Part shown: piece after piece, positions 119 to 28,080 of the stretch
Layout: the number at the start of each line of letters is the position of its first letter
Numbering within the stretch: the stretch's first letter is position 1
Source: Candidatus Levyibacteriota bacterium
Lineage (GTDB): Bacteria; Patescibacteriota; Microgenomatia; Levybacterales; UBA12049
Direction of reading: 5' to 3'
NCBI GenBank assembly: GCA_038254115.1
Contig: JBBSGK010000001.1
Location: 2,713-66,712, forward strand
DNA: 64,000 bases
The notes under the pieces: model-generated
Told to the model about the DNA's origin: nothing
The model's database searches: none
The model's input: the letters and a program-made list of their open reading frames with translations, nothing else
Program-made: the position numbers and the translations under genes

Positions 119-754
119 TTGTCAACGGTTACGAGTTATTATTTTTTACTAATTCTTGCTCCGGCTTTATTAATGACTCATCCTGAGATGCCAGTTCTTA
201 GGGATGATATTGAAAAAGGCGAGCTTGCCGGGCGCCTTCTAAAACCCTTCTCATATTACTGGCAAAGATTTTATCACGAAATTCCTTACCGTATTTTTCA
301 AGGATTATTAGCAGTAGTAATTTATTTCAGTTTGTCAGCGATATTTGGAAACTTTTTAAGATTAAACTTGTCATTGATGCAAGTAGCTTTAATTATAATA
401 ATCTTTGTCCTTGCATATATGATTTCGTTTACCTTCAAAATGATCATTGCTATTGTAGCCTTTTGGACCACAGATACCCGAGGTCTACATGAATTGACTG
501 ATGTAATAATATTAATTTTTGCAGGTTTTATTGTGCCGGTAAATTTATTACCCGGTATTCTTGAAAAAGCAGCTTATTTATTACCATTCTCGTATATTAT
601 TTATTTTCCGGTAATTGCTATTCAGGGCAAGCTATCAGTACTGTCAATGCTCTCCGTCATTTCATCTCAGATAATTTGGCTCTGCATGTTGGTAATTTTT
701 TTTAGATTTCAGTGGAAAAAAGCATTAATACGATTTACGGATTTGGGACACTAA
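119..754 (+). CDS. ABC-2 family transporter permease-like polytopic membrane protein (paralog 1 of 4); the ORF track begins at TTG, so the true start is uncertain
   Basis: It is hydrophobic with about 6 predicted TM segments. It shares the G-[DE]-[LF]-x3-L-[LI]-[KR]-P-[LF] motif (GELAGRLLKPFS) and a C-terminal LIRFTDLGH-like tail with the three following ORFs. The family assignment is from memory of PF06182-like permeases. Confidence 0.5.
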   Translation: MSTVTSYYFLLILAPALLMTHPEMPVLRDDIEKGELAGRLLKPFSYYWQRFYHEIPYRIFQGLLAVVIYFSLSAIFGNFLRLNLSLMQVALIIIIFVLAYMISFTFKMIIAIVAFWTTDTRGLHELTDVIILIFAGFIVPVNLLPGILEKAAYLLPFSYIIYFPVIAIQGKLSVLSMLSVISSQIIWLCMLVIFFRFQWKKALIRFTDLGH

Positions 755-756
755 AT

Positions 757-1548
757 ATGAAACATTACTTTCAAATTTACCTATTACTTATCAAGCTTAA
801 TTACAGGCGCAGTATTGCAAATAGAGCAGACTTATTTACCGGTCTTTTCGGGAGTCTTTCCTGGGGAGTTTTTTCTATCGTATCAATTTATATCTTGAGC
901 GCCAGGAGTTCTTCGGTATTCGGTTGGAGCCGCGCAGAATTATTTATTCTAATCGGAGTTTTTAATATTATGGTCGGAAGTACATTCCGAATGTTGTTTT
1001 CCCGTAATTTTGAAAACTTTTCAAAATTGATGAGGTATGGAGAATTGGATGGTGTTCTTCTAAAACCGCTTGATACGCAGTTCGCTGTCAGTACGCAGCA
1101 TATAAGCCTCTATGTAATTATCCGCGCTGTTATTGCGTGCATTTACACTTATATCGTAATTGTCCAATCAAATGCAGTAGTTAGTTTTTTGAGTTTTTTG
1201 AGTTTTTTCATACTTGCAATCATTGGACTAATTCTATTGTATGCTTGTTGGTTCTTGGTAATGACATTAACGGTTTGGCTTCCGGATATCTACAATCTTG
1301 ATGAGATTCTATATTCAACAGATGCACTTACGCGCTATCCTCCCCAAATTTTAAACGCTATGAAGATACTTGTCTTTTATTTATTTTTCCCGTTCACACT
1401 TGTTGTGAGCACCCCTACTAAGGCCCTGCTCCATAAATTATCTGTACTCGATGTTGTTATCCTAGTGGGTTTTGCTTGCGGGTTATTATTTATATCCAGG
1501 AAATTTTGGAAATTTGCGCTTCGTTATTACACAAGCGCGAGCGGATAA
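757..1548 (+). CDS. ABC-2 family permease-like membrane protein (paralog 2 of 4)
   Basis: The ATG at 757 lies 2 nt after the stop of paralog 1, in the same frame as track ORF 712..1548. It carries the GELDGVLLKPLD motif and the C-terminal ...LRYYTSASG tail. Confidence 0.55.
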   Translation: MKHYFQIYLLLIKLNYRRSIANRADLFTGLFGSLSWGVFSIVSIYILSARSSSVFGWSRAELFILIGVFNIMVGSTFRMLFSRNFENFSKLMRYGELDGVLLKPLDTQFAVSTQHISLYVIIRAVIACIYTYIVIVQSNAVVSFLSFLSFFILAIIGLILLYACWFLVMTLTVWLPDIYNLDEILYSTDALTRYPPQILNAMKILVFYLFFPFTLVVSTPTKALLHKLSVLDVVILVGFACGLLFISRKFWKFALRYYTSASG

Positions 1549-1550
1549 AT

Positions 1551-2345
1551 ATGAAAAAATATATTTTGGTTGCAAGAAATATGACAATTGAGATATTTAC
1601 ATACCGTCTCAATTTTGCGATGTGGCGGGCCCGCGTAGTACTAAATCTATTGACTACATATTTTCTTTGGTCCTCGCTCATTCCATCTGGGAGACAATTT
1701 TTTGGCTATTCATCATCTATGATGCTTACATATATTTTGGGTTCATATTTTGTAAGCTCATTTGTTCTGTCCACCAGAAGTTTTGGTATGGGGCAAGATA
1801 TTATTCAAGGCGATCTTTCAAACTTTTTAATAAGACCATTAAATTATTTCGGTTACTGGTTCGCAAAAGATATAGGAGACAAGCTGATGAATATCATTTT
1901 TACAATTTGTGAATTTACTATAATAGTACTAATACTAAAACCTCCTTTTTTTCTGCAGCAAGATCCTAGCTTAATATTTTTTAGTATTACAGCAATTTTT
2001 TTTGGTATATTAATTTACTTTTTATTTAATATACTTCTTGCCAGCATTGGCTTTTGGAGCCAAGAGGTCTGGGCGCCACGTTTCATTTTTGCGGTTTTAA
2101 TTAATTTTTTAGCCGGGAATTTATTTCCATTGGATATTCTCCCCAAACCGATATTTGTCGTTTTTCAGGCTCTTCCATTTTCCTATCTTATATATTTTCC
2201 TGTAAAAGTGTATCTTGGAAAATTGGGTCAACAATCAATTTTGTTGGGCTTATCAATTTCAATCACATGGATTTTTATATTGTTATTTTTGGTAAATTTT
2301 GTTTGGAGAAAAGGACTAAGAGATTACGCAGCTTATGGCAAATAA
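1551..2345 (+). CDS. ABC-2 family permease-like membrane protein (paralog 3 of 4)
   Basis: The ATG at 1551 (MKKYILVARNMT) lies 2 nt after the paralog 2 stop. It carries the GDLSNFLIRPLN motif and the C-terminal LRDYAAYGK tail. Confidence 0.55.
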   Translation: MKKYILVARNMTIEIFTYRLNFAMWRARVVLNLLTTYFLWSSLIPSGRQFFGYSSSMMLTYILGSYFVSSFVLSTRSFGMGQDIIQGDLSNFLIRPLNYFGYWFAKDIGDKLMNIIFTICEFTIIVLILKPPFFLQQDPSLIFFSITAIFFGILIYFLFNILLASIGFWSQEVWAPRFIFAVLINFLAGNLFPLDILPKPIFVVFQALPFSYLIYFPVKVYLGKLGQQSILLGLSISITWIFILLFLVNFVWRKGLRDYAAYGK

Positions 2346-3120
2346 ATATTTTAAAGTTTGGTGGTTACTTACAATCAAATCAGCGCAAACTGCATTTGAA
2401 TCTCGTTTTGGATCTATTATATTTTTCTTGGGAAAAATAATCCGGATTGTTTTGATGCTAGTTTTTATTATTGTTGTTGTATCTAAAACTAAGCAAATTG
2501 CAGGGTATAATATCTGGCAGGTCATATTTTTCTATGCAACTTTCAATTTAATAGATACGATTCCACAATTATTGATGAGGGAAGTGTACCGTTTCCGATC
2601 ATACGTAATAACAGGGGATTTTGATTATTTTTTGATTAAGCCTTTGTCTCCGTTGTTCCGCGTAATGTTTGGAGGAGCTGACGTTCTTGACAGTTTTGTT
2701 ATTCTCATTGCGATTGGATTATTAATTTTTTCTTCATCTAATATTCCAGGGATTACGGCAACCGGAGTATTATTATATATCCTGCTCATCCTAAACACTA
2801 TGCTTATTGCCGGAGCTATTCATATAGCCATTTCCGCCCTTGGAATAATAACTACAGAAGTGGATAGTGCGCTATGGATTTATAGGGATCTAACAAGTAT
2901 GGGTAGATTCCCTGTCGAAATTTATAGAGATCCTGTATCATTTTTTATCACATATGTTGTCCCGGTCGGAATTATGATTTCATTTCCCGCCAAGGCAATT
3001 CTCGGAATTCTTTCTACAACAAGTTTTATAGCGGCCTTTTTAGTAGGGGGAGTATTATTGGTGTTAAGTTTGTATTTTTGGAGATATGCGCTTTCGCAAT
3101 ATTCAAGCGCGAGTAGTTAA
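2335..3120 (+). CDS. ABC-2 family permease-like membrane protein (paralog 4 of 4)
   Basis: It overlaps paralog 3 by 11 nt. It carries the GDFDYFLIKPLS motif and the C-terminal LSQYSSASS tail. Confidence 0.55.
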   Translation: MANKYFKVWWLLTIKSAQTAFESRFGSIIFFLGKIIRIVLMLVFIIVVVSKTKQIAGYNIWQVIFFYATFNLIDTIPQLLMREVYRFRSYVITGDFDYFLIKPLSPLFRVMFGGADVLDSFVILIAIGLLIFSSSNIPGITATGVLLYILLILNTMLIAGAIHIAISALGIITTEVDSALWIYRDLTSMGRFPVEIYRDPVSFFITYVVPVGIMISFPAKAILGILSTTSFIAAFLVGGVLLVLSLYFWRYALSQYSSASS

Positions 3121-3159: not shown

Positions 3160-3520
3160 TCCCAGGAAGAAGGATCGCTATACTGCATCAAGAGATGTAG
3201 TAAGGAAAGTCCAGACAGGTGTAAGGTCGGGGATGGAGTTTACGCTCCGATTAGTGATAACTAGTGTTCAAGCTTTTATTCCACTAAACGAAGCTTGAAA
3301 CAGATCTTGAATTGACAAGATTTGAGAGCAACAGAGACGAGTGGATATGAAACGGGCAATCCCACCTGCTGCAACCTCCGAATTGGTACGTTTGAGGCGC
3401 TTTACCCGAGTACCTAAAGCTTGAGGGCACCTCGCCGAATAGGCGGGCAAGATGAGTTATATCATCATTGAGATAAATTGCGATTGAGAAACAGAATCTG
3501 GCTTACTCTCTTCCTGGGGT
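3160..3520 (+). ncRNA. rnpB: RNase P RNA (bacterial type)
   Basis: The P4 halves AGGAAAGTCCAGAC (about 3203-3216) and ACAGAATCTGGCTTA (3491-3505) covary, CAG with CTG, relative to the E. coli GGAAAGUCCGGGC / ACAGAACCCGGCUUA. The P1 helix pairs CCAGGAAGA (3162-3170) with TCTTCCTGG (3509-3517). The track ORF 3268..3450(-) lies inside this RNA and is therefore spurious. Confidence 0.8.
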
Positions 3521-3641
3521 TATTTTTAAAGTCTAAGATCCTATAGTTTGATTATTCAATAACAGTATGTTATACTATTGACATATGCCTACTTCAGCAG
3601 AAGTACAATCAGGGCGAGATTTAGAAGGTAAAGAGGCACCG

Positions 3642-4919
3642 ATGCAAAAACTTTCTATAAAAGGTCATTTGCTTCCCGGTGCAGATATTAGCGCAACCCA
3701 TGTTAATAAATTTTTAGTCGGACTCGGACCTGTCTGCGGAATGAATATATTTAATGGTCCTCATGTAAAAACTCCTGATTCCTACGATTCGGAAACTTTC
3801 AAGCGGCTTGGCAATAGACCGCCGGAAGATGTAAACGGGGCTGTAATGTGGGATGATTCTGGCGCGCAGATGTATGTTTTTCCTGATAGAAATAATTGGT
3901 TTACTCTTGATATCTATACATGTAAAAAATTTGATCCTGCTAAGGCTTTGGGATATGTGTATCAAGAATTAGATCCCAAAGCTGACATGGATTTTGCAGA
4001 GCAAGATCACAAAGTTAACACTCCTTGGCAGAGGTTTACACAACCAGAAGGAAGAGTATTGGATCCAGAGAATAAATTTACCCCAGAGATGGATGAATTA
4101 TTTGATACTGATCTTACTAACGTAAATGAAGTTATTGCAGCTGGGAAACGGTTAGAAGGTATTGTGGGTCGAGCTGTTACAGAAGGGTCTGGTAAACGGT
4201 TAGCAGCGACCTATACAAGAGGGCAGAGGGAGCAGCTAAGAGCTCTGCACAGTGATTTTGAAATAGCGGTAGATGACCGGATGATGGATGATGTTCTTTC
4301 AGGAGTAGCAACAAGCCCTGACGATTATCCATTCCAGCCAACGTATGACAGATTATCCTTGATGGAAGGACAAGCTGTAGGTGCAGACAATAAAAAACCG
4401 ATTATGCATATTGGTACCGGATGGCCGGGCACAGCGATTGGATTGTATCGCCAATTTGGAACTCCGGTGAAGTGTATTGAAATTGTTCCGGTTGTTGCGG
4501 AAAAATCCAGAAAAGCTTTGGATAAGTTGGGTTTACTCGGAGAAGACAAATTGCAAGTAATCACTGCTGATGGGAGCATGGTTAACCCTGAAGATCATAA
4601 AGCAGTTATCATTTCTGCAATGGTCCCAAATGAATATAAGAAGCAGGTAATATACAACATGAGACATTTTGCAGTAGGAAATTCGGAAGATCCATTATTG
4701 GTCTTAAGAAAGCCGCAAGATTCTGCGAGAGCGTTTTTCTATCAAGATTTTGGTGATGAAGTAATAGGTGGGGATGCTTTAGTAGATGATACTGGTAAAT
4801 TATTAAAACCTGAAGATCCGCTCCGGTCTTTAGTATATAAGGTTAGAGGTTTTGCCTCTGTGCGAGAAGGACATGATTATAAGTCAGTTTCAGCACGCGC
4901 AAGGTTGCAAAAAGTATAA
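3642..4919 (+). CDS. Fusion protein with an N-terminal S-adenosylmethionine decarboxylase (AdoMetDC/SpeD-fold)-like domain and a C-terminal Rossmann-like GxGxxG domain, possibly aminopropyltransferase- or nicotianamine-synthase-like
   Basis: DDSGAQMYVFPDRNNWFTLDIYTCKKFDP matches the class 1 AdoMetDC core pattern SxSHxxxHTWPE...DxFTCGxxDP. The C-terminal half contains IGTGWPGTAIGL. A Shine-Dalgarno sequence AAGAGG sits before the ATG at 3642, while the track ORF starts at 3585. Confidence 0.5.
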   Translation: MQKLSIKGHLLPGADISATHVNKFLVGLGPVCGMNIFNGPHVKTPDSYDSETFKRLGNRPPEDVNGAVMWDDSGAQMYVFPDRNNWFTLDIYTCKKFDPAKALGYVYQELDPKADMDFAEQDHKVNTPWQRFTQPEGRVLDPENKFTPEMDELFDTDLTNVNEVIAAGKRLEGIVGRAVTEGSGKRLAATYTRGQREQLRALHSDFEIAVDDRMMDDVLSGVATSPDDYPFQPTYDRLSLMEGQAVGADNKKPIMHIGTGWPGTAIGLYRQFGTPVKCIEIVPVVAEKSRKALDKLGLLGEDKLQVITADGSMVNPEDHKAVIISAMVPNEYKKQVIYNMRHFAVGNSEDPLLVLRKPQDSARAFFYQDFGDEVIGGDALVDDTGKLLKPEDPLRSLVYKVRGFASVREGHDYKSVSARARLQKV

Positions 4920-4964: not shown

Positions 4965-5195
4965 TTAAGAGATGCGCTTAAAGAGATTGATCAACATTAT
5001 TAATAGAATAACTCCGCCGAGGAGTTTGCGGAGCCAGTTTATTCCGCTAGTCATTTCCTGATAAGACCAGATGATGAGTGTTGCAGTAAATAGGGTAATT
5101 CCAATTTTGTGAAGGGTTCCAGCGGTAAATCTGCCAATAAGAAATCCAACTCCGGCAGCAATTAACGGGGGATTTGGTTTTTGAATAATTGTCAT
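4965..5195 (-). CDS. small hydrophobic membrane protein
   Basis: It is a 76-aa protein with two TM-like segments. Its start overlaps the rmuC stop by 4 nt (ATGA coupling). Confidence 0.4.
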   Translation of the reverse strand: MTIIQKPNPPLIAAGVGFLIGRFTAGTLHKIGITLFTATLIIWSYQEMTSGINWLRKLLGGVILLIMLINLFKRIS

Positions 5196-6196
5196 ATTTC
5201 TTCTACCGATTCCTCAATTTCTTTTTTAATCTCACTACTCAATTGTTTTGCTGATGTGAGTTTTTGGCCCATGCCGGTAAAGCCCTTATTAACATTCATA
5301 TATTGATTGGATGCATTGCCTATGTGTTTTCCCAGAGTATCGAGTGATTCATTAACTTTTTCATAATCAATTTGGAGGGCTCTTAGTAATTGAAAGACCT
5401 GGCGGGATTCAGACTCAATCTTTTTGCCTTCAAAAGAGAGAAGAATTGTCTGAAGATGAGCATAAAGTGTGCTTGGTGAGACAATATATATTCTTCTGTT
5501 TTTTGCGTACTCCAGTAGCGATTCCATATTGACCAACTCATAAAACACTGACTCCGATGGAACATACATAAGGGCAAAATCCATAGTGCCCTCATCTGGC
5601 AAGATATATTTTCTGGCAATTGAGTCAATGTGTTTTTTTATATCCCGCTCAAATTCTTTTCTATATAGCTTGGTATCTTCTTCTGTTTTTGATTTGGAAA
5701 GTTTTTGAAAATTTTCCATGGGGAACTTGGCATCGATTGGCAAAATCCCTGCATCTGTTTTGATGGCAGCATCAACTTTCTCCCCGGATTTAAATGTATA
5801 TTGCAAGTTAAAGCTGTTTTTTGGAAAAATTTGAGTAATCAAATCTTTAAGGACTTGCTCTCCGATATTGCCGCGGAGCTTTGGGCTTTTAAGAAAATCC
5901 TGAAGCTCCTTCATAGACCTGCCTATCTCACTCATCTGCCCGACTTCATGTCCGACGTCACGTATTACAGCTGCCGCTTTATCCAGCCTGTCATTTAATT
6001 GTTTGGAATTTTCCTGAAGCGTCCGGACTGTACTAACTGAGCTGGAATCAATCGATGCCTGCATTGATTTAAGCCATTCAAGTAGAGCAGTATCAGGTTT
6101 GTCACTTTTTATATCAGATAACTTTTTGTTGAGGAAATATATTATTGCAAAAAAACCAAGAATGATAACGGTTAAAATAGGCAGTAGATTATTCAT
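5192..6196 (-). CDS. rmuC: DNA recombination protein RmuC
   Basis: It has an N-terminal TM anchor, a coiled-coil region, then the conserved RmuC core (…LRGNIGEQVLKDLI…DAAI…PIDAKFP…). Confidence 0.75.
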   Translation of the reverse strand: MNNLLPILTVIILGFFAIIYFLNKKLSDIKSDKPDTALLEWLKSMQASIDSSSVSTVRTLQENSKQLNDRLDKAAAVIRDVGHEVGQMSEIGRSMKELQDFLKSPKLRGNIGEQVLKDLITQIFPKNSFNLQYTFKSGEKVDAAIKTDAGILPIDAKFPMENFQKLSKSKTEEDTKLYRKEFERDIKKHIDSIARKYILPDEGTMDFALMYVPSESVFYELVNMESLLEYAKNRRIYIVSPSTLYAHLQTILLSFEGKKIESESRQVFQLLRALQIDYEKVNESLDTLGKHIGNASNQYMNVNKGFTGMGQKLTSAKQLSSEIKKEIEESVEEI

Positions 6197-16253: not shown

Positions 16254-19028
16254 ATGGACCGTGATATTGAAAAAATCAAAGCCTATACCCGCGCCGCCAA
16301 TTATTTGACGGTGTCACAAATTTATCTCAAAGATAATTTTCTTCTCGATAGGCCTCTAAAACCTGATGATATCAAGCCGAGACTTGCCGGACACTGGGGG
16401 ACTTGTCCCGGGGTTAATTTTGTTTATGCGCATTTGAATCATCTTGTCAAAAAGCACAAGCAATCATCAATTTTTGTTCTGGGGCCGGGCCATGGAATGG
16501 GAGGGCTTCAGGCAAATTTATTTCTTGAGGGAACACTGCAGAAGTACTACAGTGAGGCTAAGCGGGATGAAAAAGGAATTGGATACATTTCAAAGCGGTA
16601 CACATGGCCATATGGATTTTCAAGCCACAGCAGTCCTGAGACTCCAGGATTAATACTTGAAGGCGGGGAATTAGGCTACTCGTTATCTAGCGCTTATGGT
16701 GCTATTCTGGACAATCCCGATTTGCTTGCTGCATGTTTGATAGGGGATGGGGAAGCCGAAACAGGCGCAATTGCGGGAGCGTGGCATATCAACAAACTGA
16801 TTGATCCTGCAACCAATGGCGCTGTCTTACCGATCCTTCATGTTAATGGGTATAAAATTTCAGGTCCTACAATCTTTGGCCGGATGAGTAATAAAGAGCT
16901 TGAGGAATTATTTAGCGGATATGGGTATGAACCATTTTTTGTTGAAGGCAAAGATTTGGATGAGCAAATGTATAAAACTCTTGAGATATGCTATCAACGT
17001 ATCAAAAATATCCAACAAGTTGCCCGGGGTATTAATCCACCATTTAAGCCCCGTTTCCCAATGATTGTTATGCGGACTCCAAAAGGGATGACAACTGTTA
17101 AAGAGTTAAGGGGGCAAAAAATAGAAGGAACTATTCTTTCACACCATGTTGTAATGCCTACTGTTAAAGGCGATGAACACGAACTTCAAGCGCTTGAGGC
17201 ATGGCTTAAGTCATATCATTTCGAAGAATTGTTTGATAAAAAGAAAGGCTTTTCACAAGATATTCTGGACAACATTCCACCAGACAAATTTTTAATTGGT
17301 GACAATCCTCATATGTTCGGAAAAAAATACAAGCCTCTTATTTTGCCAAAAAGTAAAGAATTAGAAAAGGCGGTTGCAACACCAGGTGAGATACAGTCAA
17401 ATTCCATGCGTATGGCAGGAGTTTATCTGAAAGAGATTTTTACGCTTAATAAAAAAGAAAACAATTTTCGCCTGATGTCACCTGATGAGACTTATTCCAA
17501 TCGGCTTGATAATGTATTTGAAGTGACTGGGCGGGCATGGGTTTGGCCGCATGAGGAAGGGGATCGCGATATGACTAGGTCGGGTAAGGTCATGGAAATG
17601 CTTTCTGAGCAAAACTTACACGGGCTTGCTCAGGGATATACGTTAACTGGAAGACATGTTGCATTCACTACGTATGAAGCTTTCGCGCAAATTTTTGCCA
17701 GCATGGCACACACTTATCAAAAGTTTCTTAAATATGTAAGGAAAATGCCATGGAGACAGGATATCCCCAGTCTTAATTATTTTATAACCTCAACCGTTTG
17801 GAGGCAGGAACGAGATGGTTATTCTCACCAGAATCCGGGGTTTATCTCCGGCATGCTTGAGAAGCATAATGATTTTATCAAAGCCTATTTTCCGGTTGAT
17901 GATAATAGTATGCTAGCAACACTTGACGAAACAATGGCTTCAAAAAATCAGATAAATATTATAACTGCCGGTAAAACACCAGAACCCCGTTGGTTGACAT
18001 ATGCACAAGCAAAAAAATCACTTGAGCAGGGTCTTTCTACGTGGGAATTTGCGAGTGATGAGAATCCACACATTGTTTTGGTTGGAGTTGGAGATTATGT
18101 GACCAAAGAGGCAATGGCTGCAATTGAGACGATTAAGTTGGATGCTTCAGAGATTAGAATTCGATTTGTAAATATTGCCCGCCTGCAGGCTGCTTGTGAA
18201 TGCGAGGATGAATTTCATCCTCAAATTCCTGAGGCTGAAAAATACTTCACAGTTGATAAGCCGGTGATTGTCAACTTTCATGGATATCCTGAAGCCATGC
18301 AGTCAATATTGTTTGGTGTCAAGAATCCTCAGCGTTTTTCAGTTCATGGATATAACGAATGGGGAGGAACAACGACGCCTTTTGATTTGTTAGTCCGAAA
18401 CAGGACAGACAGATATCATTTGGCAATTGAAGTTGCTGAGACTATGGCAAAAGAGGAAGTCATAACGCATGAGAAAAAAGAAGTGTTGATTAATAAATAC
18501 AAAAAAGCTCTGTCAGATCACCATGATTATATTGTGAAAAATGGTTGTGAGCCAGCAGAAATTGAAAATTGGCAATGGTTAGGAAAACAGTCAGAAAAAG
18601 TGACAGTAAGTGAAATAAATCATAATGAAATTTTAAAAAGTGCCCGCACAATTGCATTTATTGGTTTGTCAGATAATCCCGAGAGACACAGTAACCGGGT
18701 AGCGAAATATTTCCAAAATAAAGGATATCGGATCATTCCGGTTAATCCAAATGTTGAGGAGGTACTGGGTGAGAAATCATACAAAACTTTTACATCAATT
18801 CCGATAGATACTCATATTGATATAGTAGATATTTTCAGAAAGCCTGCGGATGCAATAGCGCATATGAGGGAAATTGTTGAGCGGGGAGGCATAAAAACGG
18901 TCTGGCTTGCAGATGGTGTAAATAGTCCGGAAGCTGAAGATTTCGCAGAGGATTATGGTCTTTCTATGGTTACTAATTATTGTATAATGGATGCATACAA
19001 GGATCTGGAAAAACAAAAAATTATATGA
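16254..19028 (+). CDS. xfp: xylulose-5-phosphate/fructose-6-phosphate phosphoketolase fused to a C-terminal CoA-binding (YccU/CoA_binding_2-like) domain
   Basis: The N-terminal roughly 800 aa match XFP (…AGHWGTCPGVNFVYAHLNHL…, thiamine-diphosphate enzyme). The extra roughly 120 aa (…IAFIGLSDNPERHSNRVAKYFQNKGYRIIPVNPN…VDIFRKPAD…IKTVWLADGV…) match the stand-alone CoA-binding domain. Confidence 0.85.
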   Translation: MDRDIEKIKAYTRAANYLTVSQIYLKDNFLLDRPLKPDDIKPRLAGHWGTCPGVNFVYAHLNHLVKKHKQSSIFVLGPGHGMGGLQANLFLEGTLQKYYSEAKRDEKGIGYISKRYTWPYGFSSHSSPETPGLILEGGELGYSLSSAYGAILDNPDLLAACLIGDGEAETGAIAGAWHINKLIDPATNGAVLPILHVNGYKISGPTIFGRMSNKELEELFSGYGYEPFFVEGKDLDEQMYKTLEICYQRIKNIQQVARGINPPFKPRFPMIVMRTPKGMTTVKELRGQKIEGTILSHHVVMPTVKGDEHELQALEAWLKSYHFEELFDKKKGFSQDILDNIPPDKFLIGDNPHMFGKKYKPLILPKSKELEKAVATPGEIQSNSMRMAGVYLKEIFTLNKKENNFRLMSPDETYSNRLDNVFEVTGRAWVWPHEEGDRDMTRSGKVMEMLSEQNLHGLAQGYTLTGRHVAFTTYEAFAQIFASMAHTYQKFLKYVRKMPWRQDIPSLNYFITSTVWRQERDGYSHQNPGFISGMLEKHNDFIKAYFPVDDNSMLATLDETMASKNQINIITAGKTPEPRWLTYAQAKKSLEQGLSTWEFASDENPHIVLVGVGDYVTKEAMAAIETIKLDASEIRIRFVNIARLQAACECEDEFHPQIPEAEKYFTVDKPVIVNFHGYPEAMQSILFGVKNPQRFSVHGYNEWGGTTTPFDLLVRNRTDRYHLAIEVAETMAKEEVITHEKKEVLINKYKKALSDHHDYIVKNGCEPAEIENWQWLGKQSEKVTVSEINHNEILKSARTIAFIGLSDNPERHSNRVAKYFQNKGYRIIPVNPNVEEVLGEKSYKTFTSIPIDTHIDIVDIFRKPADAIAHMREIVERGGIKTVWLADGVNSPEAEDFAEDYGLSMVTNYCIMDAYKDLEKQKII

Positions 19029-20779
19029 GTGACAAAGGAAAAATTATAACTAAAGATCTTAAAAAATTTGCTAAATCCCCCAATCTTTCCGATTACGATA
19101 AAACTTATAAATCCTTTTCCTGGGAAAACGCAGCAAAAGAAGAAATAGAATTTTTTCCGGACGGCACTCTAAATATTGTCTACAATTGCATTGACCGTCA
19201 TGCAAAAGGCAAGCGGAAAAACAAGGTTGCTTTACTTTTTGAAGGAGCAAAAGGTGAGAAAGAAAAATACACGTTCTCTGATTTAAAAAAACTTATAGAT
19301 AAATTTGCAAATGTTCTTGTTTCAAAAAATGTTAAAAAGGGAGATAGGGTTTTTATCTTTCTTCCTCCAATTCCTGAGCGCTATGTTGCATTCCTCGGGA
19401 TTTTAAAAATGGGGGGAGTTGTCGGTACTATGTTTTCAGCTTTTCAGGAAATGGCGCTTTTGGACCGTCTATCAGACAGCGGTGCAAAAGTAGTGATCAC
19501 CAACTCCGCTTTATATCCACGCATTGAAAAGATCTGGAAGGACTTGCCTGATTTAGAGAAAATAATTATCGTTGACCGGGGGGGGGATGACCTGCTGGAG
19601 GGAAAAAATATTGTTCATTATAAAAAAGAAATGGATGCTGCACCGGATGATTTTGAGATAGCGCATATGAAAAAAGATGATTATTCATATATGTTATATA
19701 CATCTGGCACTACAGGGACGCCAAAGGGAGTAATGCACTCTCACTATGATATTCTTCAGGCAATTGTTACTACAAAATATGTTCTGGATGTTCAGGAAAA
19801 TGATATATATTGGTGTACTGCCGACATCGGTTGGGTTACAGGTGTTGTTTATGCAACCCTTGGACCTTGGGGATTGGGGGTAACTCAGGTATTGTTTGAA
19901 GGAAGATTTAGCCCTGATGCATGGTACAAGATTATGCAGGATTATAAAGTTACCCTGTGGTATACAGCTCCTACTGCCGTTCGGATGCTGATGGGATCAG
20001 ATGTGTCTCCCAAAAAATATAATTTATCGAAATTAAGAGAAATTTTTAGTGTAGGTGAACCTCTAAATCCTGAAGCGATTTGGTGGGGACTTGAAGCTTA
20101 CGGTTTGCCATTTCATGACACTTGGTGGCAGACAGAACTCGGGGGAATATCAATCACTAACTATCCGGTTATGGATGTAAGACCGGGTTCTATGGGCAAA
20201 CCTTTGCCCGGGATAAAAGCTGCAATTATTGATGATAATGGGAAAGAACTTGAAGATGGTGAGGAAGGGCATCTGGCACTTTTGTCATCCACAATCTCTT
20301 CGCTTATGAAAACAATCTGGAACAACAAAAAAAAGTTTGATTCCTATTTTATTGGCAAATGGTACATCTCAGGAGATAAAGCATTCCGGGATAAAGATGG
20401 TTATTATTGGTTTGTCGGCCGTGCCGATGATGTGATCAAAACATCAGGTGAGCGGGTCGGGCCATTTGAGGTTGAGAGCGCTCTCGTTTCCCACCCTCAT
20501 GTAATTGAGGCCGGAGTTATCGGAAAGCCTGATGAGGTAAGGGGCGAGATAATCAAAGCTTTTGTTGTTACAAAGCCCGGAGTTGAGCAGACTGAAGAGC
20601 TGAAGGAAGAGCTGAAACTGCATGTAAAAAAACATCTTGCGGGACACGCATATCCGCGGGAAATTGATTATATTGATAAACTGCCGAAGACAAGATCAGG
20701 AAAAATCATGAGACGTGTTTTGAAAGCAAAAGAACTGGGACTTCCAGTTGGTGATACCTCAACGCTTGAGGATTATTAA
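19025..20779 (+). CDS. AMP-forming acetyl/acyl-CoA synthetase
   Basis: It has the YTSGTTGTPKGV AMP-binding motif and a C-terminal …PKTRSGKIMRR…. Its ATG overlaps the xfp TGA by 4 nt (ATGA). Confidence 0.8.
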   Translation: MSDKGKIITKDLKKFAKSPNLSDYDKTYKSFSWENAAKEEIEFFPDGTLNIVYNCIDRHAKGKRKNKVALLFEGAKGEKEKYTFSDLKKLIDKFANVLVSKNVKKGDRVFIFLPPIPERYVAFLGILKMGGVVGTMFSAFQEMALLDRLSDSGAKVVITNSALYPRIEKIWKDLPDLEKIIIVDRGGDDLLEGKNIVHYKKEMDAAPDDFEIAHMKKDDYSYMLYTSGTTGTPKGVMHSHYDILQAIVTTKYVLDVQENDIYWCTADIGWVTGVVYATLGPWGLGVTQVLFEGRFSPDAWYKIMQDYKVTLWYTAPTAVRMLMGSDVSPKKYNLSKLREIFSVGEPLNPEAIWWGLEAYGLPFHDTWWQTELGGISITNYPVMDVRPGSMGKPLPGIKAAIIDDNGKELEDGEEGHLALLSSTISSLMKTIWNNKKKFDSYFIGKWYISGDKAFRDKDGYYWFVGRADDVIKTSGERVGPFEVESALVSHPHVIEAGVIGKPDEVRGEIIKAFVVTKPGVEQTEELKEELKLHVKKHLAGHAYPREIDYIDKLPKTRSGKIMRRVLKAKELGLPVGDTSTLEDY

Positions 20780-21282: not shown

Positions 21283-22380
21283 ATGCCTAAACAGATACTT
21301 ACCATCAAACAAGCGGCGAAATTACTTCAAGTTGATCCCAACACTATTTATCGCTGGGCAAGATCCGGAAAATTTCCGGGATCCAAGATTGGAAAAGAAT
21401 GGAGGGTCCTGCACTCGGATGTAATCAAGTTTATCGAGTCCAACAAAAAGAGAACGCAATTTCTTTCAGAATCCCAAGAAGCAGAGCTGATAACAGCACT
21501 TGTCGGAAGACGCGAGATTCCTCTCAAATTTGAGTATATTGGCATAGGAGCCGAAAGATATGTTTCACTGTCATTTCCCAATGTTGGAGGCGGATCAGAG
21601 TTTGATATTATCCTAGATAATAAGAAAAAGCTCTCATCATTTTTGGGAAAAAGACCCTTCAATTTATTAGATCTTGGTTCAGGGGATGGAAAAAAAGCAG
21701 CATTTTTTATAAATAATATAAATAAAAGTACCTCAGGATATTTCGCATTGGATATAAGTTCGAGAATGCTTGCGATTGCAACAAGTAATATAGAGTTGTC
21801 ATTTCCAAATTTACCCCATGAAACATTCATAGGGGACTTTGAAAACGGGAATATTGCACAGCAGACATATTATCTGCAAAGGAGATATCAAAATAATAAT
21901 CTTATTTTATTTTTGGGAAATACGATCGGTAATCTTCCAGATGCACATAGGGTACTTATGAATTTACGGGATAGTATGACTGAGGAGGATTATCTATTAG
22001 TTGGTCTTGCTTTCTATAACCCAAACAATATTCCTTTGGAATCATATAACAGTGAGAGGGTTAAAGACTGGTTATGGAGTGTGCCTCAAAAAATAGGAAT
22101 AACTTCAAAAGATGCAAAAATTTATGCATCATACAACAAGCAAAGACGTCAAATTGAAATGCAACTTGAATTCGATAGAGATTGGGGACAGACTTATGGA
22201 TTAAATCTCCTATCGTTTAATGAGGGACAAAGAATAAGGTTGGCTATTTCGAGGCGATTCACAAAAGATGATATTTTTGAGTTGTTTGCCGGGGCTGGAT
22301 TTAAAATAGAGCTATTAACACACGATAAAGATAACGCGCTTGTTCTTGTCCGCCCCCACACATGGGAGAAGAAAATTTAG
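21283..22380 (+). CDS. N-terminal excisionase/MerR-type HTH DNA-binding domain fused to an EgtD-like (Methyltransf_33/DUF2260) SAM-dependent methyltransferase
   Basis: The HTH is TIKQAAKLLQVDPNTIYRWARSGKFPGSKIGKEWRV. The methyltransferase motifs LDLGSGDGKK, GDFENG and LFLGNTIGNL resemble the EgtD motifs ELGSG…, GDFE…, FLGSTIGNF. Confidence 0.55.
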   Translation: MPKQILTIKQAAKLLQVDPNTIYRWARSGKFPGSKIGKEWRVLHSDVIKFIESNKKRTQFLSESQEAELITALVGRREIPLKFEYIGIGAERYVSLSFPNVGGGSEFDIILDNKKKLSSFLGKRPFNLLDLGSGDGKKAAFFINNINKSTSGYFALDISSRMLAIATSNIELSFPNLPHETFIGDFENGNIAQQTYYLQRRYQNNNLILFLGNTIGNLPDAHRVLMNLRDSMTEEDYLLVGLAFYNPNNIPLESYNSERVKDWLWSVPQKIGITSKDAKIYASYNKQRRQIEMQLEFDRDWGQTYGLNLLSFNEGQRIRLAISRRFTKDDIFELFAGAGFKIELLTHDKDNALVLVRPHTWEKKI

Positions 22381-23534: not shown

Positions 23535-24758
23535 ATGGCAAAAATTAATAAAAACTTTCAAAAATTAAAATCTAGCTATCTTTCTGTTCAAATTAACAAA
23601 AGAACAAAAGCTTTTCAAGTAAAACATCCGGGTAGCCAGATATACAAACTGGGCATAGGCAACACAACCGAGCCATTGCCAGGGAGTGTTATTAGTGGGC
23701 TTCAGGCAGGTGTTGATAAGCTTTCTGATGTCAAAACATATACCGGTTATGGAGAGGAAACAGGGGATAATAGACTTAGGGAAGCGCTTTCGGAAAAGTA
23801 TTCTAAAAATGGTATTATACTTGATTTTCAAGAAATATTTATAAGTGATGGCGCAAAGCCGGATACCGCAAACATTCAATCTATTTTTTCAATTGACAGT
23901 GTAGTGGCAGTTCAAGATCCGGTTTACCCTGTGTATGTTGAGACAAATGTAATTGCCGGAAGAACCGGAGAGTATGAAAATGGGAAATACAAAGGCCTTG
24001 TTTATCTTCCATGTACGAAAGAGAATAATTTCGTACCTTACCTACCGGAAATAAAAGTTGATCTTATGTATTTGTGTAGTCCCAATAATCCAACAGGTGC
24101 AGTTCTTACAAAAGAACAATTAAAAAAATTTGTTGATTATGCGCTGAAAAATAAAGCAATTATCATTTATGATGCAGCTTATGAGGCATTCATCAGGAAT
24201 AATGATTTGCCACATAGTATTTATGAAATTGAGGGAGCTAAAGAATGTGCAATTGAGGTGGGTAGCTTTTCAAAATCTTCCGGCTTTACCGGTGTCCGGG
24301 TTGGCTGGACAGTTGTACCAATGGATTTGGTTGGAGAGGATGCAAAAAAAGGTGAAGTAAATGCTTTGTGGGCTAGAAGACAGGTGACAATGTTCAATGG
24401 AGCATCAAATATCGCGCAGGAAGGAGCACTAGCAGTGTTATCAGATAAAGGACAGAAAGAGTGTAATAAAATAGTTGCGTATTACATGGAAAATGCACAA
24501 ATTATAAAAACCGCTTTTGACAATCTGGGATTTGAAGTTTTTGGCGGAGAAAACGCTCCTTATATATGGATTAAAACGCCGGGAAAACTAACATCATGGG
24601 AATTTTTTGATAAATTGCTGGATGAGGCACATGTCGTCGGAACACCGGGCTCTATTTTCGGCCCTCACGGCGAAGGCTACTTCAGACTTTCGGCATTTGG
24701 ACATAGGGAAGACATAGAAAAAGCGGTAAAAAGTATAGAGGAGAAATTAAAAATATGA
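23535..24758 (+). CDS. dapL: LL-diaminopimelate aminotransferase (DapL-type class I aminotransferase)
   Basis: …LGIGNTTEPLPG…YTGYGEE…PVYPVYVETNVIAG…LCSPNNPTG…SFSKSSGFTGVRVGW… matches the DapL family. The PLP lysine lies in SFSKS. Confidence 0.75.
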   Translation: MAKINKNFQKLKSSYLSVQINKRTKAFQVKHPGSQIYKLGIGNTTEPLPGSVISGLQAGVDKLSDVKTYTGYGEETGDNRLREALSEKYSKNGIILDFQEIFISDGAKPDTANIQSIFSIDSVVAVQDPVYPVYVETNVIAGRTGEYENGKYKGLVYLPCTKENNFVPYLPEIKVDLMYLCSPNNPTGAVLTKEQLKKFVDYALKNKAIIIYDAAYEAFIRNNDLPHSIYEIEGAKECAIEVGSFSKSSGFTGVRVGWTVVPMDLVGEDAKKGEVNALWARRQVTMFNGASNIAQEGALAVLSDKGQKECNKIVAYYMENAQIIKTAFDNLGFEVFGGENAPYIWIKTPGKLTSWEFFDKLLDEAHVVGTPGSIFGPHGEGYFRLSAFGHREDIEKAVKSIEEKLKI

Positions 24759-26008
24759 AAAAAACAATTCCTTTTACAAAAGCGCAAATTGAAGAAGTTA
24801 TAAAAAAATATCCCACGCCATTTCATATTTATGATGAAGAAGCGATCATTAACAATGCTCGCAAACTTTATAAAGCATTTGATTGGGTTGAGGGATTCAA
24901 GAATTATTATGCTGTAAAAGTTAATCCAAACCCTCATATAATTAAAATTCTTAAAGAAGAAGGTATGGGACTGGATTGCAGCTCCCTGCCGGAGCTTATC
25001 TTAGCTGAAAAGCTCGGTTTTAAAGGTGATGAAATTATGTTCAGTTCCAATGACACGGCTTATGGGGAATTTAAGAAAGCATATGACATGGGAGCGATAA
25101 TAAATCTTGATGATATAACTCACATTGAAATTTTGGAAAAATATGCAGGTATCCCTAATATTATTTGTTTTAGGTACAATCCTGGACCACTTAGAAAACA
25201 TAAAGGTAATGTTATTATTGGCAATCCTGAAGATGCGAAATTTGGTATGACGCGTGAACAATTATTTGATGCATATAAAATAATGAAAACAAAAGGGGTA
25301 AAGAGATTTGGTTTGCATGCGATGATTGCATCAAATGAATTGGATAAAAACGCGTTCGTTGAAACAGCTGAGCTTCTTTTGGATCTGGTCGTTGAAATAT
25401 CAAAAAAAGTAGGAATAAAATTTGAATTTATTAATTTAGGAGGGGGAATAGGAATTCCTCAAAAGCTTACAGAAAATCCAGTGGATCTAGAATTTGTTTC
25501 ACAAGGTATAAAAAAATTATATCAGCAAAAAATCGTTAAAAATAAATTGGCGTCGCTTAGCATGGTTATGGAAAATGGTAGAGTAATTGCAGGGCCATAT
25601 GGATATTTAGTAACAAAAGTTATACATCAAAAAAATATATACAAAAAATATATAGGAGTGGACGCTTCAATGGCGAATTTTATGCGCCCTGCAGTATACA
25701 AAGCATATCATCATGAGACAGTGCTTGGTAAAGAAAATAGCCCCAGTACAGAGACATATGATGTTGTCGGATCGCTATGTGAGAATAATGATAAATTTGC
25801 TATTGATAGAAAGCTTCCAAAAATTGAAATTGGAGATCTTATCGTGATTCACGACACAGGTGCTCACGGACACGCAATGGGATTTAATTATAATGGCAAA
25901 CTTCGATCAGCTGAATTATTGCTCCGTCCTGATAAAACAGTAAAACTGATAAGAAGGGCAGAAACCATAGATGATTATTTCGCAACATTGGATTTTAAGA
26001 ATTTATAA
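24755..26008 (+). CDS. lysA: diaminopimelate decarboxylase
   Basis: It has the fold-III PLP decarboxylase motifs (…YAVKVNPNP…, …GGGIGIP…, …EPGR-like…CENND…). Its ATG overlaps the dapL TGA. Confidence 0.8.
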   Translation: MKKTIPFTKAQIEEVIKKYPTPFHIYDEEAIINNARKLYKAFDWVEGFKNYYAVKVNPNPHIIKILKEEGMGLDCSSLPELILAEKLGFKGDEIMFSSNDTAYGEFKKAYDMGAIINLDDITHIEILEKYAGIPNIICFRYNPGPLRKHKGNVIIGNPEDAKFGMTREQLFDAYKIMKTKGVKRFGLHAMIASNELDKNAFVETAELLLDLVVEISKKVGIKFEFINLGGGIGIPQKLTENPVDLEFVSQGIKKLYQQKIVKNKLASLSMVMENGRVIAGPYGYLVTKVIHQKNIYKKYIGVDASMANFMRPAVYKAYHHETVLGKENSPSTETYDVVGSLCENNDKFAIDRKLPKIEIGDLIVIHDTGAHGHAMGFNYNGKLRSAELLLRPDKTVKLIRRAETIDDYFATLDFKNL

Positions 26009-26013
26009 AACAT

Positions 26014-27345
26014 ATGATAGTTGCAAAATTTGGAGGAAAATCAGTCGGGAGCGCGAAAAGCGTTGAGACAATTTGTCGGATAGTAAAATCGGAAATAAAA
26101 AAAAATCCGGTGATTGTTGTTTCTGCGGTTAGTCAGGTAACCAATATGCTTGTCGCGCTTGCTGATGCCGATTTCGGGACATTTGATGAGATATTTAACA
26201 AAATCAAGGCAGCGCATTTTGATTTGATAGCTTCTTTGTGGGAAATAAGTCCAACAGAACTTACGGGATATATTGATAGCTGTCTAAACAGTCTAAAAGC
26301 TATTGCATCTCAAGAAAGTAAAACAAAAGCAGATATGGATTCTCTTCTGATGCATGGGGAGATGATGTCTTCATATATTATCGCGCATTATTTAACCGAA
26401 TCAGGGATAAAGTCCCAACAAGTACTTGCAACGGAGTTGATTGTTACTGATCGGGAATTCGGATCTGCAGAGTTTATCCCTGATCTAACCGCCAAAAAAA
26501 CTAAAACAATAATCGAACCGTTACTTAACGCGGGCATTGTACCGGTGATCACCGGTTTTCTCGGAGCAACAGAAAAGGGAGAGCCGACAACTTTGGGACG
26601 CGGAGGATCTGATTACAGCGCTTCAATAATAGGGTTTGCTCTCAACGCCTCAGAAGTTCAGATTTGGTCAGATGTTGACGGGATTTTTTCGGCTGATCCG
26701 CGTGCCGTATCTAAAGCAAAGCTTATAAAAAACATATCTTTTAAAGAGGCATCAGAGCTTGCTTATTTTGGGGCAAAAATACTTCATCCAAGTACTCTTC
26801 GTCCAGCAATGAAAGCAGGTATTCCTGTCCGGGTTATGAATACAATGAATCCCAAAAATTCAGGGACAACTATTCAAAAAGATTCCCTATCCGTGAACGA
26901 AATTAAAGCAATAACCTCAAAAAAAAATATAAAGCTTATCAATCTTTATTCAGCAGATATGCTTTTTGGTAAAGGATTTTTGGCTCGTATTTTTGCAATT
27001 TTTTCAAAACATAATGTATCTATTGATTTGGTGAGTGTTTCGGAAGTAAGTGTTTCTGTAACTATGGATAATCAGGATAACCTAAAATTGGCGCTACAGG
27101 AGCTTTCAGAATTTACATCTGTTGCAAATCTGCCAGACTTTGGTATAGTATCTCTAGTCGGGGATAGAATCGTAAAAATTCCCCATATCATGAAAAATAT
27201 ATTTACTATTCTAGATGCACAAAAAATTGGAGTTAAAATGATCTCACTCGGAGCAACGGATATTAATATAAGTGTGGTTATAGAATCTTCTAAAATTGAG
27301 ACAGCAGTTGAAAGTTTGCACAATGAATTATTATTAAAATTATGA
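26014..27345 (+). CDS. lysC: aspartate kinase
   Basis: MIVAKFGGKSVGS…, the amino-acid kinase fold and C-terminal ACT domains. Confidence 0.85.
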   Translation: MIVAKFGGKSVGSAKSVETICRIVKSEIKKNPVIVVSAVSQVTNMLVALADADFGTFDEIFNKIKAAHFDLIASLWEISPTELTGYIDSCLNSLKAIASQESKTKADMDSLLMHGEMMSSYIIAHYLTESGIKSQQVLATELIVTDREFGSAEFIPDLTAKKTKTIIEPLLNAGIVPVITGFLGATEKGEPTTLGRGGSDYSASIIGFALNASEVQIWSDVDGIFSADPRAVSKAKLIKNISFKEASELAYFGAKILHPSTLRPAMKAGIPVRVMNTMNPKNSGTTIQKDSLSVNEIKAITSKKNIKLINLYSADMLFGKGFLARIFAIFSKHNVSIDLVSVSEVSVSVTMDNQDNLKLALQELSEFTSVANLPDFGIVSLVGDRIVKIPHIMKNIFTILDAQKIGVKMISLGATDINISVVIESSKIETAVESLHNELLLKL

Positions 27346-28079
27346 AAATAGCATTAATAGGTTACGGAAAAATGGGACAGGAAATTGAGCAAGTTGTTCG
27401 CGCGGGGAAAAAACATGAGATTGTTTCTGTGAGTTTTAGAACGACCAGCGATACTCTTGATATCGACAGAATAAAAAATGCGGATGTGGCGATTGATTTT
27501 ACGTCACCGGAAATAGTTCTAAAAAATATTCAACAAGTTTCAGGACTGGGCATAAATATGGTCGTTGGAACAACAGGTTGGTATGATCAATTATCGGAAG
27601 TTGAAAAACTTGTTGAAAAAGCAAATATTGGATTAGTATTCGGACAAAATTTCTCAATTGGCGCAAATATCTTTTTTGATATTATAAAATACGCAAGTAA
27701 TCAGATTAACAGGTTTGAAGGATATGATGTATTTGGTGTTGAAACTCATCACACTGGTAAAAAAGATAGCCCGAGCGGTACGGCAAAAAAGCTTGGGGAA
27801 ATTATACTCAAGAATTATCCGAGCAAAAAAATATTGCAAACTGAAAAATTGGATAGACCTGTTAAACCCGAAGAACTGCATTTCGCATCAGTTAGGGGTG
27901 GAAGAAATCCCGGGCGTCATGAAATCGCATTTGATAGTAAGGCAGACGAGATAAGACTTATTCATCAAGCTTGGGGAAGAAAAGGATTTGCTGAAGGAGC
28001 AGTTGTCGCGGCAGAATTTATAAAAGATAAAAAGGGCTTGTATGATTTTAGTGAGATATTTAATGAGGTAAATAAATAA
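27342..28079 (+). CDS. dapB: 4-hydroxy-tetrahydrodipicolinate reductase
   Basis: MKIALIGYGKMGQ… is a Rossmann N-terminus, with a DapB C-terminal domain (…FEGYDVFGVETHHTGKKDSPSGTA…). It overlaps the lysC stop (ATGA). Confidence 0.8.
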   Translation: MKIALIGYGKMGQEIEQVVRAGKKHEIVSVSFRTTSDTLDIDRIKNADVAIDFTSPEIVLKNIQQVSGLGINMVVGTTGWYDQLSEVEKLVEKANIGLVFGQNFSIGANIFFDIIKYASNQINRFEGYDVFGVETHHTGKKDSPSGTAKKLGEIILKNYPSKKILQTEKLDRPVKPEELHFASVRGGRNPGRHEIAFDSKADEIRLIHQAWGRKGFAEGAVVAAEFIKDKKGLYDFSEIFNEVNK

Positions 28080-28080
28080 T

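Follow-up and report, generated by a model that had tools for sequence, protein, structure and literature searches.

We describe a protein encoded near the start of a 64,000 bp stretch of DNA (hereafter the window) from a Candidatus Levyibacteriota bacterium (contig JBBSGK010000001.1, positions 2,713 to 66,712 of the forward strand), in which a domain with the fold of S-adenosylmethionine decarboxylase (AdoMetDC) is joined to a domain related to nicotianamine synthase (NAS). The two folds, their conserved catalytic residues, the loss of residues specific to S-adenosylmethionine (AdoMet or SAM) from the first domain, and the conserved linkage of the domains are all evident in the protein and its relatives. 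Together they suggest a possible reaction, which we put forward tentatively, in which the NAS-like domain would transfer an ACP (3-amino-3-carboxypropyl) group from SAM to an amine, after which the N-terminal domain, acting as a pyruvoyl enzyme, would decarboxylate the adduct. Both superfamilies are known; as far as our literature search shows, what is undescribed is their combination, a clade of AdoMetDC-like proteins with Tyr in place of the processing His, and the reaction that these features imply.

The open reading frame (ORF) lies at 3585-4919 on the forward strand and runs uninterrupted from an ATG start to a TAA stop, encoding 444 amino acids and a predicted proenzyme of 49.3 kDa; cleavage at the predicted site D91|S92 would give computed products of 9.8 kDa (beta chain) and 39.5 kDa (alpha chain). 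The G+C content of the ORF is 41% and that of the window 38.6%, and the same architecture is present in about 27 homologues from independent assemblies. An earlier note on this DNA (the original prediction) had reported the ORF at this position, and the three strings that it quoted are located where it placed them, with DDSGAQMYVFPD at residues 90-101, FTLDIYTCKKFDP at residues 106-118 and IGTGWPGTAIGL at residues 276-287.

The N-terminal domain (residues 20-150; 3642-4034, forward strand) has the class 1b AdoMetDC fold, as assigned by Pfam, by profile comparison with the Protein Data Bank (PDB), and by AlphaFold2 (AF2) modelling with Foldseek. Pfam PF02675 matches the central region only (residues 79-132; 26.9 bits against a gathering score of 25, E 6.3e-6), and there is a family-specific acidic insertion at residues ~62-86. 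A profile built from fused and stand-alone relatives finds the Aquifex aeolicus AdoMetDC proenzyme (2III, E 9e-8) and the Thermotoga maritima enzyme (1TLU, E 3.8e-4) in the PDB. The AF2 model of residues 18-152 has a mean predicted local distance difference test score (pLDDT) of 96.8 and a predicted template modelling score (pTM) of 0.90, and its best PDB match is T. maritima AdoMetDC (1VR7/1TLU; template modelling score [TM] 0.74, root mean square deviation [rmsd] 2.7 Å), followed by AdoMetDCs from eukaryotes and by human spermine synthase in its N-terminal domain. The likeness to AdoMetDC is far beyond chance. The original prediction had recognized it around the self-processing region, and neither the profile nor the fold searches assign this half of the protein to an unrelated fold.

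Alignment of the profile with T. maritima AdoMetDC places S92 (codon 3858-3860) at the pyruvoyl-forming Ser63, Y97 at His68, P100 at Pro71, D101 at Glu72, and C113 (codon 3921-3923) at the catalytic proton donor Cys83. In the AF2 models Ser92 sits in a turn between two strands, and self-cleavage is predicted between D91 and S92. The segment Y97-V-F-P100-D101 (3873-3887), placed by both the profile alignment and the family columns, is the counterpart of H68-T-W-P-E72. Conservation was assessed by a column comparison of 39 fused and 8 short relatives, with counts taken on the 38 aligned fused sequences; the central region of the T. maritima sequence set alongside agrees with the PDB profile alignment. 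Ser occupies the pyruvoyl position in 36 of the 38; in the other two an inserted H-S is probably misaligned. The catalytic Cys is invariant (38/38), and the Pro of the H-x-W-P-E motif is present in 32. Both Ser and Cys persist even in relatives with ~20-28% identity across the N-domain. Nearly every member of the family has Tyr, and two have Cys, at the His68 position, five residues after the Ser; the original prediction did not mention this. It had correctly noted Asp ahead of the Ser (D91, at the position of Glu62) and proposed that conservation of the cleavage site be examined; the residue here is Asp in 29 of the aligned relatives, Asn in four, and otherwise varied. The Glu72 position (D101) is occupied across the family by N, D, S, T, E, K, R, G or H.

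In T. maritima AdoMetDC, S63, H68 and C83 are essential, with His68 needed for self-processing (Li et al. 2023, PMC10407285). Kozbial and Mushegian describe the Glu that ends the strand before the Ser as contacting the adenine of AdoMet, and the second Glu, in H-x-x-P-E, as binding both ribose hydroxyls (PMC1282579). Because Ser and Cys are kept in the fusion family and the two Glu positions are lost or variable, the residues that bear the chemistry are strongly constrained and those specific for AdoMet are not. The N-domain thus resembles the T. maritima enzyme (SpeH/SpeD class, TM0655) in its fold, in the position of the pyruvoyl Ser in an inter-strand turn, in the Cys, and in the Pro and an aromatic residue of the H-x-W-P-E motif, but departs from it in having Tyr for His, Asp for the Glu before the Ser, an unconserved ribose-Glu position, a 25-residue acidic insertion, and fusion to a transferase of 285 residues. 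It also scores only 21.9 bits against the NCBIfam equivalog for SpeH (TIGR03330), whose cut-off is 75.65, and is probably not a bona fide AdoMetDC. The original prediction had left a choice between a functional decarboxylase of the AdoMetDC-aminopropyltransferase kind and a neofunctionalised one, and of these the latter fits better, given the Tyr at His68, the variable Glu72 position and the score below the SpeH cut-off.

Close parallels are SpeDA and SpeDC, pyruvoyl decarboxylases of L-arginine and L-ornithine that derive from AdoMetDC, have also lost the ribose-binding Glu, and likewise occur among DPANN archaea and members of the candidate phyla radiation (Li et al. 2023, PMC10407285); like them, the N-domain of the fusion family has probably changed its substrate. 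However, all characterized SpeDA and SpeDC proteins keep the Gly, Ser, His and Cys, whereas the fusion family has Tyr at the His position, and none has been reported fused to a NAS-like domain (PMC10407285). The SpeDC signature Q..ETS....GHF, taken from comparison with published SpeDA and SpeDC sequences, is not present in the N-domain, which reads W-D-D-S-G-A-Q-M-Y-V-F-P.

Proteins consisting of an N-type domain alone, 124-141 residues in length, keep the E/D-S pair and the Cys. Among AdoMetDC-like proteins with the same Tyr, P0074 (319 residues) is a tandem fusion of two Tyr-type domains, with an E-S cleavage motif missing from the first (M-S-G-A-S) but present in the second (W-A-E-S-G), an arrangement that resembles the pseudo-dimeric eukaryotic AdoMetDCs. 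Four Bathyarchaeia contigs (L012-L015, at 5001-5372) encode a 123-residue Tyr-for-His protein, P0169 (W-A-E-S-G-V-A-L-Y-S-W), that adjoins genes resembling those for methanofuran biosynthesis (4HFCP_synth/MfnB, ATP-grasp_3, AA_kinase and Hydantoinase_A), and which might replace MfnA as a tyrosine decarboxylase of the pyruvoyl type.

The C-terminal domain (residues 160-444; 4062-4916, forward strand) is NAS-like by phmmer, profile and Foldseek comparisons, and in it a helical N-subdomain precedes a SAM-binding subdomain of the class I Rossmann type. The Rossmann-type domain of the original prediction is therefore real, although the size given for it (~200 residues) is too small; with the helical subdomain included it spans ~285 residues. 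In a phmmer search of the PDB the sole match is the thermonicotianamine synthase of M. thermautotrophicus (MtNAS, 3FPE; E 5e-6), which the family profile finds at E 2.5e-10. The full-length AF2 model (pLDDT 90.1, pTM 0.84) matches MtNAS (3FPE/3FPJ) by Foldseek at E 3e-11 with a TM of 0.76-0.80 over ~270 columns, and CntL with a TM of 0.70-0.75; structures of these two enzymes make up the top 12 matches, with ordinary methyltransferases ranking lower. The Pfam NAS family (PF03059) does not match the window protein even at E values up to 10, but two distant fused relatives, P0056 and P0081, exceed its gathering score of 27.1 with 36.9 and 34.6 bits respectively.

The active-site residues of NAS enzymes are readily located in this domain. 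In MtNAS the pair Glu81 and Tyr107 deprotonates the acceptor amine (PMC10491745), and the equivalent residues of AtNAS1, E77 and Y106, are essential, E73 and E77 being its two acids (PMC10248798). In the segment E226-I-A-V-D230 (4260-4274) the invariant D230 aligns with Glu81 and E226 corresponds to the second acid found throughout the superfamily, and the profile alignment places Tyr254 (codon 4344-4346) at Tyr107. Motif I, the SAM-binding glycine loop, reads H275-I-G-T-G-W-P-G-T283 (4407-4433) and has no acidic residue, in agreement with the NAS motif F-x-G-S-G-P-x-P, which lacks the acidic residue of methyltransferases (PMC1282579); the invariant His275 stands where other NAS-like proteins have Phe and methyltransferases have Asp or Glu.

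Columns of the C-domain were compared among three groups of sequences: 40 close relatives, 12 distant relatives with the fusion, and 116 NAS-like representatives without it. Common to all three groups are E226, D/E230, Y/F254, E261, G277, G279, P281, T/S283, C297, E/D299, K352, R375 and Y386. The close family stands apart in having D230 where the others have Glu, Q251 for Tyr, H275 for Phe, and W280 for Leu or Phe, and the divergent fused subfamilies have E at 230, Y, H, Q or F at 251, and M, H or F at 275. MtNAS (3FPE) and Staphylococcus aureus CntL (7C7M) thus share with the fusion the two-subdomain fold, the acid and Tyr pair (E81/Y107 against D230/Y254), the acid-free motif I, and E261, K352, R375 and Y386; they differ in having Glu as the acid and Y, F and L/F in place of Q251, H275 and W280. 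Unlike CntL, the fusion gene has no CntM, CntK or transporter gene nearby, and its product carries the pyruvoyl-decarboxylase-type domain at its N-terminus. By its residues and modelled fold, the C-domain is predicted to be a complete SAM-dependent ACP transferase of the NAS/CntL type, and not a SpeE-type aminopropyltransferase; MtNAS and CntL transfer the ACP group of SAM itself.

A SpeE-type partner was considered and rejected. The GGG[DE]G motif occurs in none of the ORFs of the window, the protein has no spermidine-synthase match in Pfam or NCBIfam, human spermine synthase superimposes on the full-length model only with an rmsd of 17 Å, and the best fold matches are NAS enzymes. Known AdoMetDC fusions are to spermidine or spermine synthases of the SpeE type or to a second SpeD homologue, and a degraded version is present in animal spermine synthase (PMC10407285, PMC12803844). 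Animal spermine synthase (3C6K) and the bacterial fusions of AdoMetDC to spermidine or spermine synthase have the same order of domains as the window protein, and spermine synthase is among the fold matches of both halves, but their transferase is of the dcSAM-using SpeE type with GGGDG (dcSAM being decarboxylated SAM), whereas here it is of the NAS type. The N-domain of the bacterial fusions is a proven AdoMetDC, and that of the animal enzyme has lost its activity and serves dimer formation (PMC12803844). The suggestion that the window protein is a fusion of this reported kind does not stand, given its NAS-type partner; the broader claim of an AdoMetDC-fold domain joined to a SAM-binding Rossmann domain does, and the residues of the latter point to chemistry of the aminoalkyl-transfer type. 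The NAS-like enzymes known to date have a single domain, and in bacteria their genes lie in metallophore operons of the cnt type (PMC10491745). A full-text literature search gave no relevant account of NAS combined with an AdoMetDC or pyruvoyl domain, although coverage of the literature was incomplete and this is absence of evidence.

The family is rare, with 32 clusters at 90% identity among 5.8 billion and 25 representatives at E < 1e-30 among 1.84 billion; it is represented by one locus in GTDB species representatives and five in JGI metagenome contigs, and no relatives were found in viral contigs. Those homologues that carry a name are listed as 'Patescibacteria group bacterium' or 'Candidatus Woesearchaeota archaeon', and one genomic context looks archaeal. 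The sole GTDB-representative contig with the gene (L020, CAYGGJ010000025.1) is titled 'uncultured Gammaproteobacteria bacterium', and its neighbouring genes (M23 and M16 peptidases, a prepilin peptidase and a glycosyltransferase) include none specific to Gammaproteobacteria. This label may reflect mis-binning, as all other named homologues are from Patescibacteria or DPANN archaea.

The two domains are linked both by recurring fusion and by adjacency as separate genes, which suggests a functional connection. The fusion recurs in subfamilies whose N-domains are ~20-28% identical to that of the window protein (P0036, P0050, P0052, P0053, P0056, P0057, P0063, P0073, P0081 and P0083). In Candidatus Shapirobacteria contigs a 124-residue stand-alone N-type protein (W-E-E-S-G-C-H-V-Y-I-W) is encoded 33 bp from a divergently transcribed gene for a 292-residue homologue of the C-domain, which shares the D230/H275 signature (hhalign probability 99.6%, E 4.9e-24). 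In contig L031 (437-1721) a 151-residue N-type ORF overlaps a co-directional 280-residue C-type ORF by 14 nt (E 6.9e-43). Two further candidates for separate C-domains were discarded; the gene for P0028 is cut by the end of its contig, and the 292-residue gene downstream of homologue P0008 is not NAS-like.

Both domains look catalytically competent, because Ser92 and Cys113 are kept along with the hallmark residues of NAS. In the tentative reading given above, the C-terminal domain would bind SAM, transfer its ACP group to an amine, and release methylthioadenosine (MTA). The proenzyme would cleave itself at D91|S92, turning S92 into a pyruvoyl group, and this group, with C113 as proton donor, would remove the carboxylate from the alpha-amino acid end of the ACP adduct. 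Overall, an amine and SAM would be converted into an aminopropyl-amine, MTA and CO2, with neither free dcSAM nor a SpeE-type enzyme taking part; as a guess, the acceptor might be a di- or polyamine, putrescine for instance. Self-cleavage, which step comes first, and the nature of the acceptor are inferred. Cycles of ACP transfer and decarboxylation might repeat to give longer polyamine chains, since NAS enzymes work iteratively.

ACP transfer as the first step is favored because the N-domain has kept its catalytic and aromatic residues and lost exactly those that hold adenosine. An ACP-amine adduct would match this pattern well, as it has the ACP skeleton, an ammonium in place of the sulfonium, and no nucleoside. 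A second reason is the unchanged NAS active site of the divergent fusions, including K352 and R375, which suggests that the donor still carries its carboxylate; either of these two residues may bind it. A third is the precedent of MccD and MccE in microcin C maturation, where SAM-dependent ACP transfer followed by decarboxylation yields an aminopropyl group (PMC10491745). The proposed logic is the same, although MccD is a different enzyme of the methyltransferase fold, MccE depends on pyridoxal phosphate (PLP), and the acceptor is a phosphoramidate (PMC10491745). A fourth is that in each of the contexts examined the gene stands by itself, surrounded by housekeeping genes unrelated to it, as would suit a self-sufficient two-step enzyme.

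Several observations weigh against this scheme. Every functional AdoMetDC homologue characterized keeps the processing His (PMC10407285), and self-processing with Tyr in its place is putative. There are no polyamine-related genes nearby. Within the close family there are stand-alone C-domains (P0030 and P0031) and a stand-alone N-domain (P0043), and the split N-type ORF of L031 has Leu at the Ser position. The two activities are thus not obligatorily coupled, since stand-alone halves exist and one split N-domain lacks the Ser; the split version in L031 could also be a decaying copy or the product of a frameshift or assembly error.

A second explanation, held with slightly less confidence, is that the N-domain has been neofunctionalised into a pyruvoyl enzyme that decarboxylates a free amino acid, as did the Arg and Orn decarboxylases that arose from AdoMetDC, and that the resulting amine serves as the starter to which the NAS domain adds one or more ACP groups from SAM. 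The product would then be carboxylated, either nicotianamine-like or a carboxy-polyamine, and could be for example a metal chelator. AdoMetDCs have given rise to amino acid decarboxylases repeatedly, including in the candidate phyla radiation and among DPANN archaea (PMC10407285), and loss of the ribose-binding Glu fits this explanation equally well. The closest stand-alone relatives share the Tyr-for-His replacement and do not adjoin speE, and one Bathyarchaeia relative is located beside methanofuran genes, where a tyrosine decarboxylase is expected; characterized NAS-like enzymes, moreover, start from an amino acid and build chelators (PMC10248798, PMC10491745). However, the processing His that all characterized SpeDA and SpeDC proteins retain is absent, as is the SpeDC signature, and the contexts examined contain neither an opine dehydrogenase gene nor conserved exporter or importer genes. 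The ABC transporter genes upstream in the window are set apart by an RNase P RNA gene (see below) and are absent in other lineages.

The original prediction leaned towards a true AdoMetDC that makes dcSAM, and in a version adapted to the present findings the NAS-like domain would have been recruited as an aminopropyltransferase that uses it, making the protein an analogue, without SpeE, of the known AdoMetDC-SpdSyn/SpmSyn fusions. We consider this unlikely, although in the close family the fold is kept, as are the Ser, the Cys and the H-x-W-P-E Pro, a residue conserved in bona fide AdoMetDCs and not in Arg decarboxylases (PMC10407285). Functional bacterial AdoMetDC-aminopropyltransferase fusions exist (PMC12803844), NAS and SpeE share an SN2 chemistry that targets the methionine moiety at its C-gamma (PMC10491745), and the three close-family changes (E to D230, Y to Q251 and F to H275) could reflect a changed donor. 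Yet both AdoMet-contacting Glu residues are lost or variable, the His is Tyr, and the score falls far below the SpeH cut-off. In addition, motif I has gained no acidic residue of the kind seen in the GGGDG of SpeE, and the divergent fusions keep the generic NAS active site, such that no donor-related change is common to all fusions.

Less probable still is that the N-domain is a non-catalytic module for structure or dimerization, as in animal spermine synthase, with the NAS-like domain acting as an ordinary ACP transferase. In its favor, the processing His is missing, human spermine synthase is both a precedent and one of the fold matches, close stand-alone C-domains occur with no N-domain, and a split N-domain has Leu for Ser. 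But degraded AdoMetDC-like domains lose their catalytic residues, as in the SpeD2 domain of V. vadensis (PMC10407285), whereas here Ser and Cys survive at ~20-28% identity, and the stand-alone N-type proteins retain the E/D-S and Cys too. An ordinary SAM-dependent methyltransferase of class I that carries an accessory domain, suggested by the NCBI name of homologue P0018 and by weak, sub-threshold methyltransferase matches in Pfam and the PDB, is very improbable given that NAS and CntL are the closest matches in both sequence and fold and that the NAS acid/Tyr pair and acid-free motif I are present.

Polyamine biosynthesis is regarded as well mapped, and to our knowledge all SAM-dependent aminopropylation of polyamines is carried out by AdoMetDC together with a SpeE-type transferase. 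ACP transfer followed by decarboxylation, if true, would bypass both dcSAM and the SpeE family, and an AdoMetDC-fold enzyme would form its pyruvoyl group with Tyr in place of a supposedly essential His. It is conceivable, at the same tentative level, that an unrecognized polyamine route exists in ultra-small symbionts of both domains of life (Patescibacteria and DPANN archaea), in which one such polypeptide aminopropylates amines directly from SAM. The conserved pairing of an AdoMetDC fold with a NAS-type transferase points to a third, dcSAM-independent route or to a new class of nicotianamine-like metabolite, and the Tyr-for-His family challenges the rule that the processing His of AdoMetDC is indispensable. 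The organisms that carry the gene are biosynthetically poor, and each enzyme that they retain is informative about a symbiotic lifestyle.

The gene order in the window and in syntenic relatives is recA, recX, RNase Y, HU, an ATP-binding cassette (ABC) ATPase, four ABC2_membrane_6 permeases, the RNase P RNA gene, the fusion gene, and then rmuC on the opposite strand. The four permease genes are consecutive paralogues (119-3120, forward strand), with the ABC ATPase gene just outside the start of the window, and this arrangement of ATPase and permeases is syntenic in related contigs. The RNase P RNA gene (3162-3521, forward strand) is intergenic, lies just upstream of the ORF, and is a full-length match to the bacterial type A model (58.5 bits, E 2.5e-17) with the hallmarks GGAAAGUCC and ACAGAAUCUGGCUUA; a default Rfam scan misses it because its score is far below the gathering score of 100. 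As this gene accounts for the 464-bp intergenic region, a riboswitch or leader 5' of the ORF was rejected, and there is therefore no operon link between the ORF and the upstream ABC transporter genes. A promoter-like TTGATT-17-TATACT with a TG extension (3548-3576, forward strand), recognized by consensus match only, ends 8 nt 5' of the ATG, and given this spacing the mRNA may be leaderless.

In other lineages the gene is flanked by ruvC and by a gene for a class I aminoacyl-tRNA synthetase, or adjoins M16 peptidase and glycosyltransferase genes, and the upstream ABC transporter is not part of these contexts. Among about a dozen loci examined there are no neighbours conserved beyond lineage synteny, and no genes for opine dehydrogenase (CntM) or metallophore transporters. 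TrmB-family regulator genes adjoin a homologue in two unrelated contexts, in L004 (7021-7839, reverse strand), where the regulator gene is divergent from that of P0008, and in L010 (4280-5996, forward strand), where two in tandem precede the stand-alone C-domain P0031. Genes for D-2-hydroxyacid dehydrogenases are nearby in L008 and L010.

The original prediction also proposed a search for speE, speB or agmatinase elsewhere in the genome; none is present in the 64-kb window, which is a fraction of the genome, and the same is true of a metK-type motif and of arginine or ornithine decarboxylase (ADC/ODC) and carboxyspermidine genes. The sole PLP-dependent decarboxylase found in the window (24755-26008) is LysA, which belongs to a lysine operon and is not a polyamine gene. 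This complete-looking diaminopimelate (DAP) operon (23535-32875, forward strand) encodes LL-DAP aminotransferase, LysA, an aspartate kinase-ACT protein, DapB, DapA, Asd and homoserine dehydrogenase, and is followed by a class I lysyl-tRNA synthetase gene; it is a notable biosynthetic capacity for an otherwise Patescibacteria-like genome. No tRNA or tmRNA genes were identified by ARAGORN in the whole 64 kb, and Rfam at gathering thresholds also returned nothing. The interval 16254-20779 (forward strand) contains a 924-residue phosphoketolase (XFP_N/XFP/XFP_C) with a C-terminal CoA_binding_2 domain, the end of which is overlapped by an AMP-binding ORF resembling acyl-CoA synthetases. Finally, an ORF at 21283-22380 (forward strand) encodes an excisionase-type helix-turn-helix domain (HTH_17) fused to an EgtD-like, histidine-specific SAM methyltransferase domain (Methyltransf_33); the protein scores well below the EgtD equivalog cut-off, and its helix-turn-helix weakly resembles that of the anti-phage protein MADS1.

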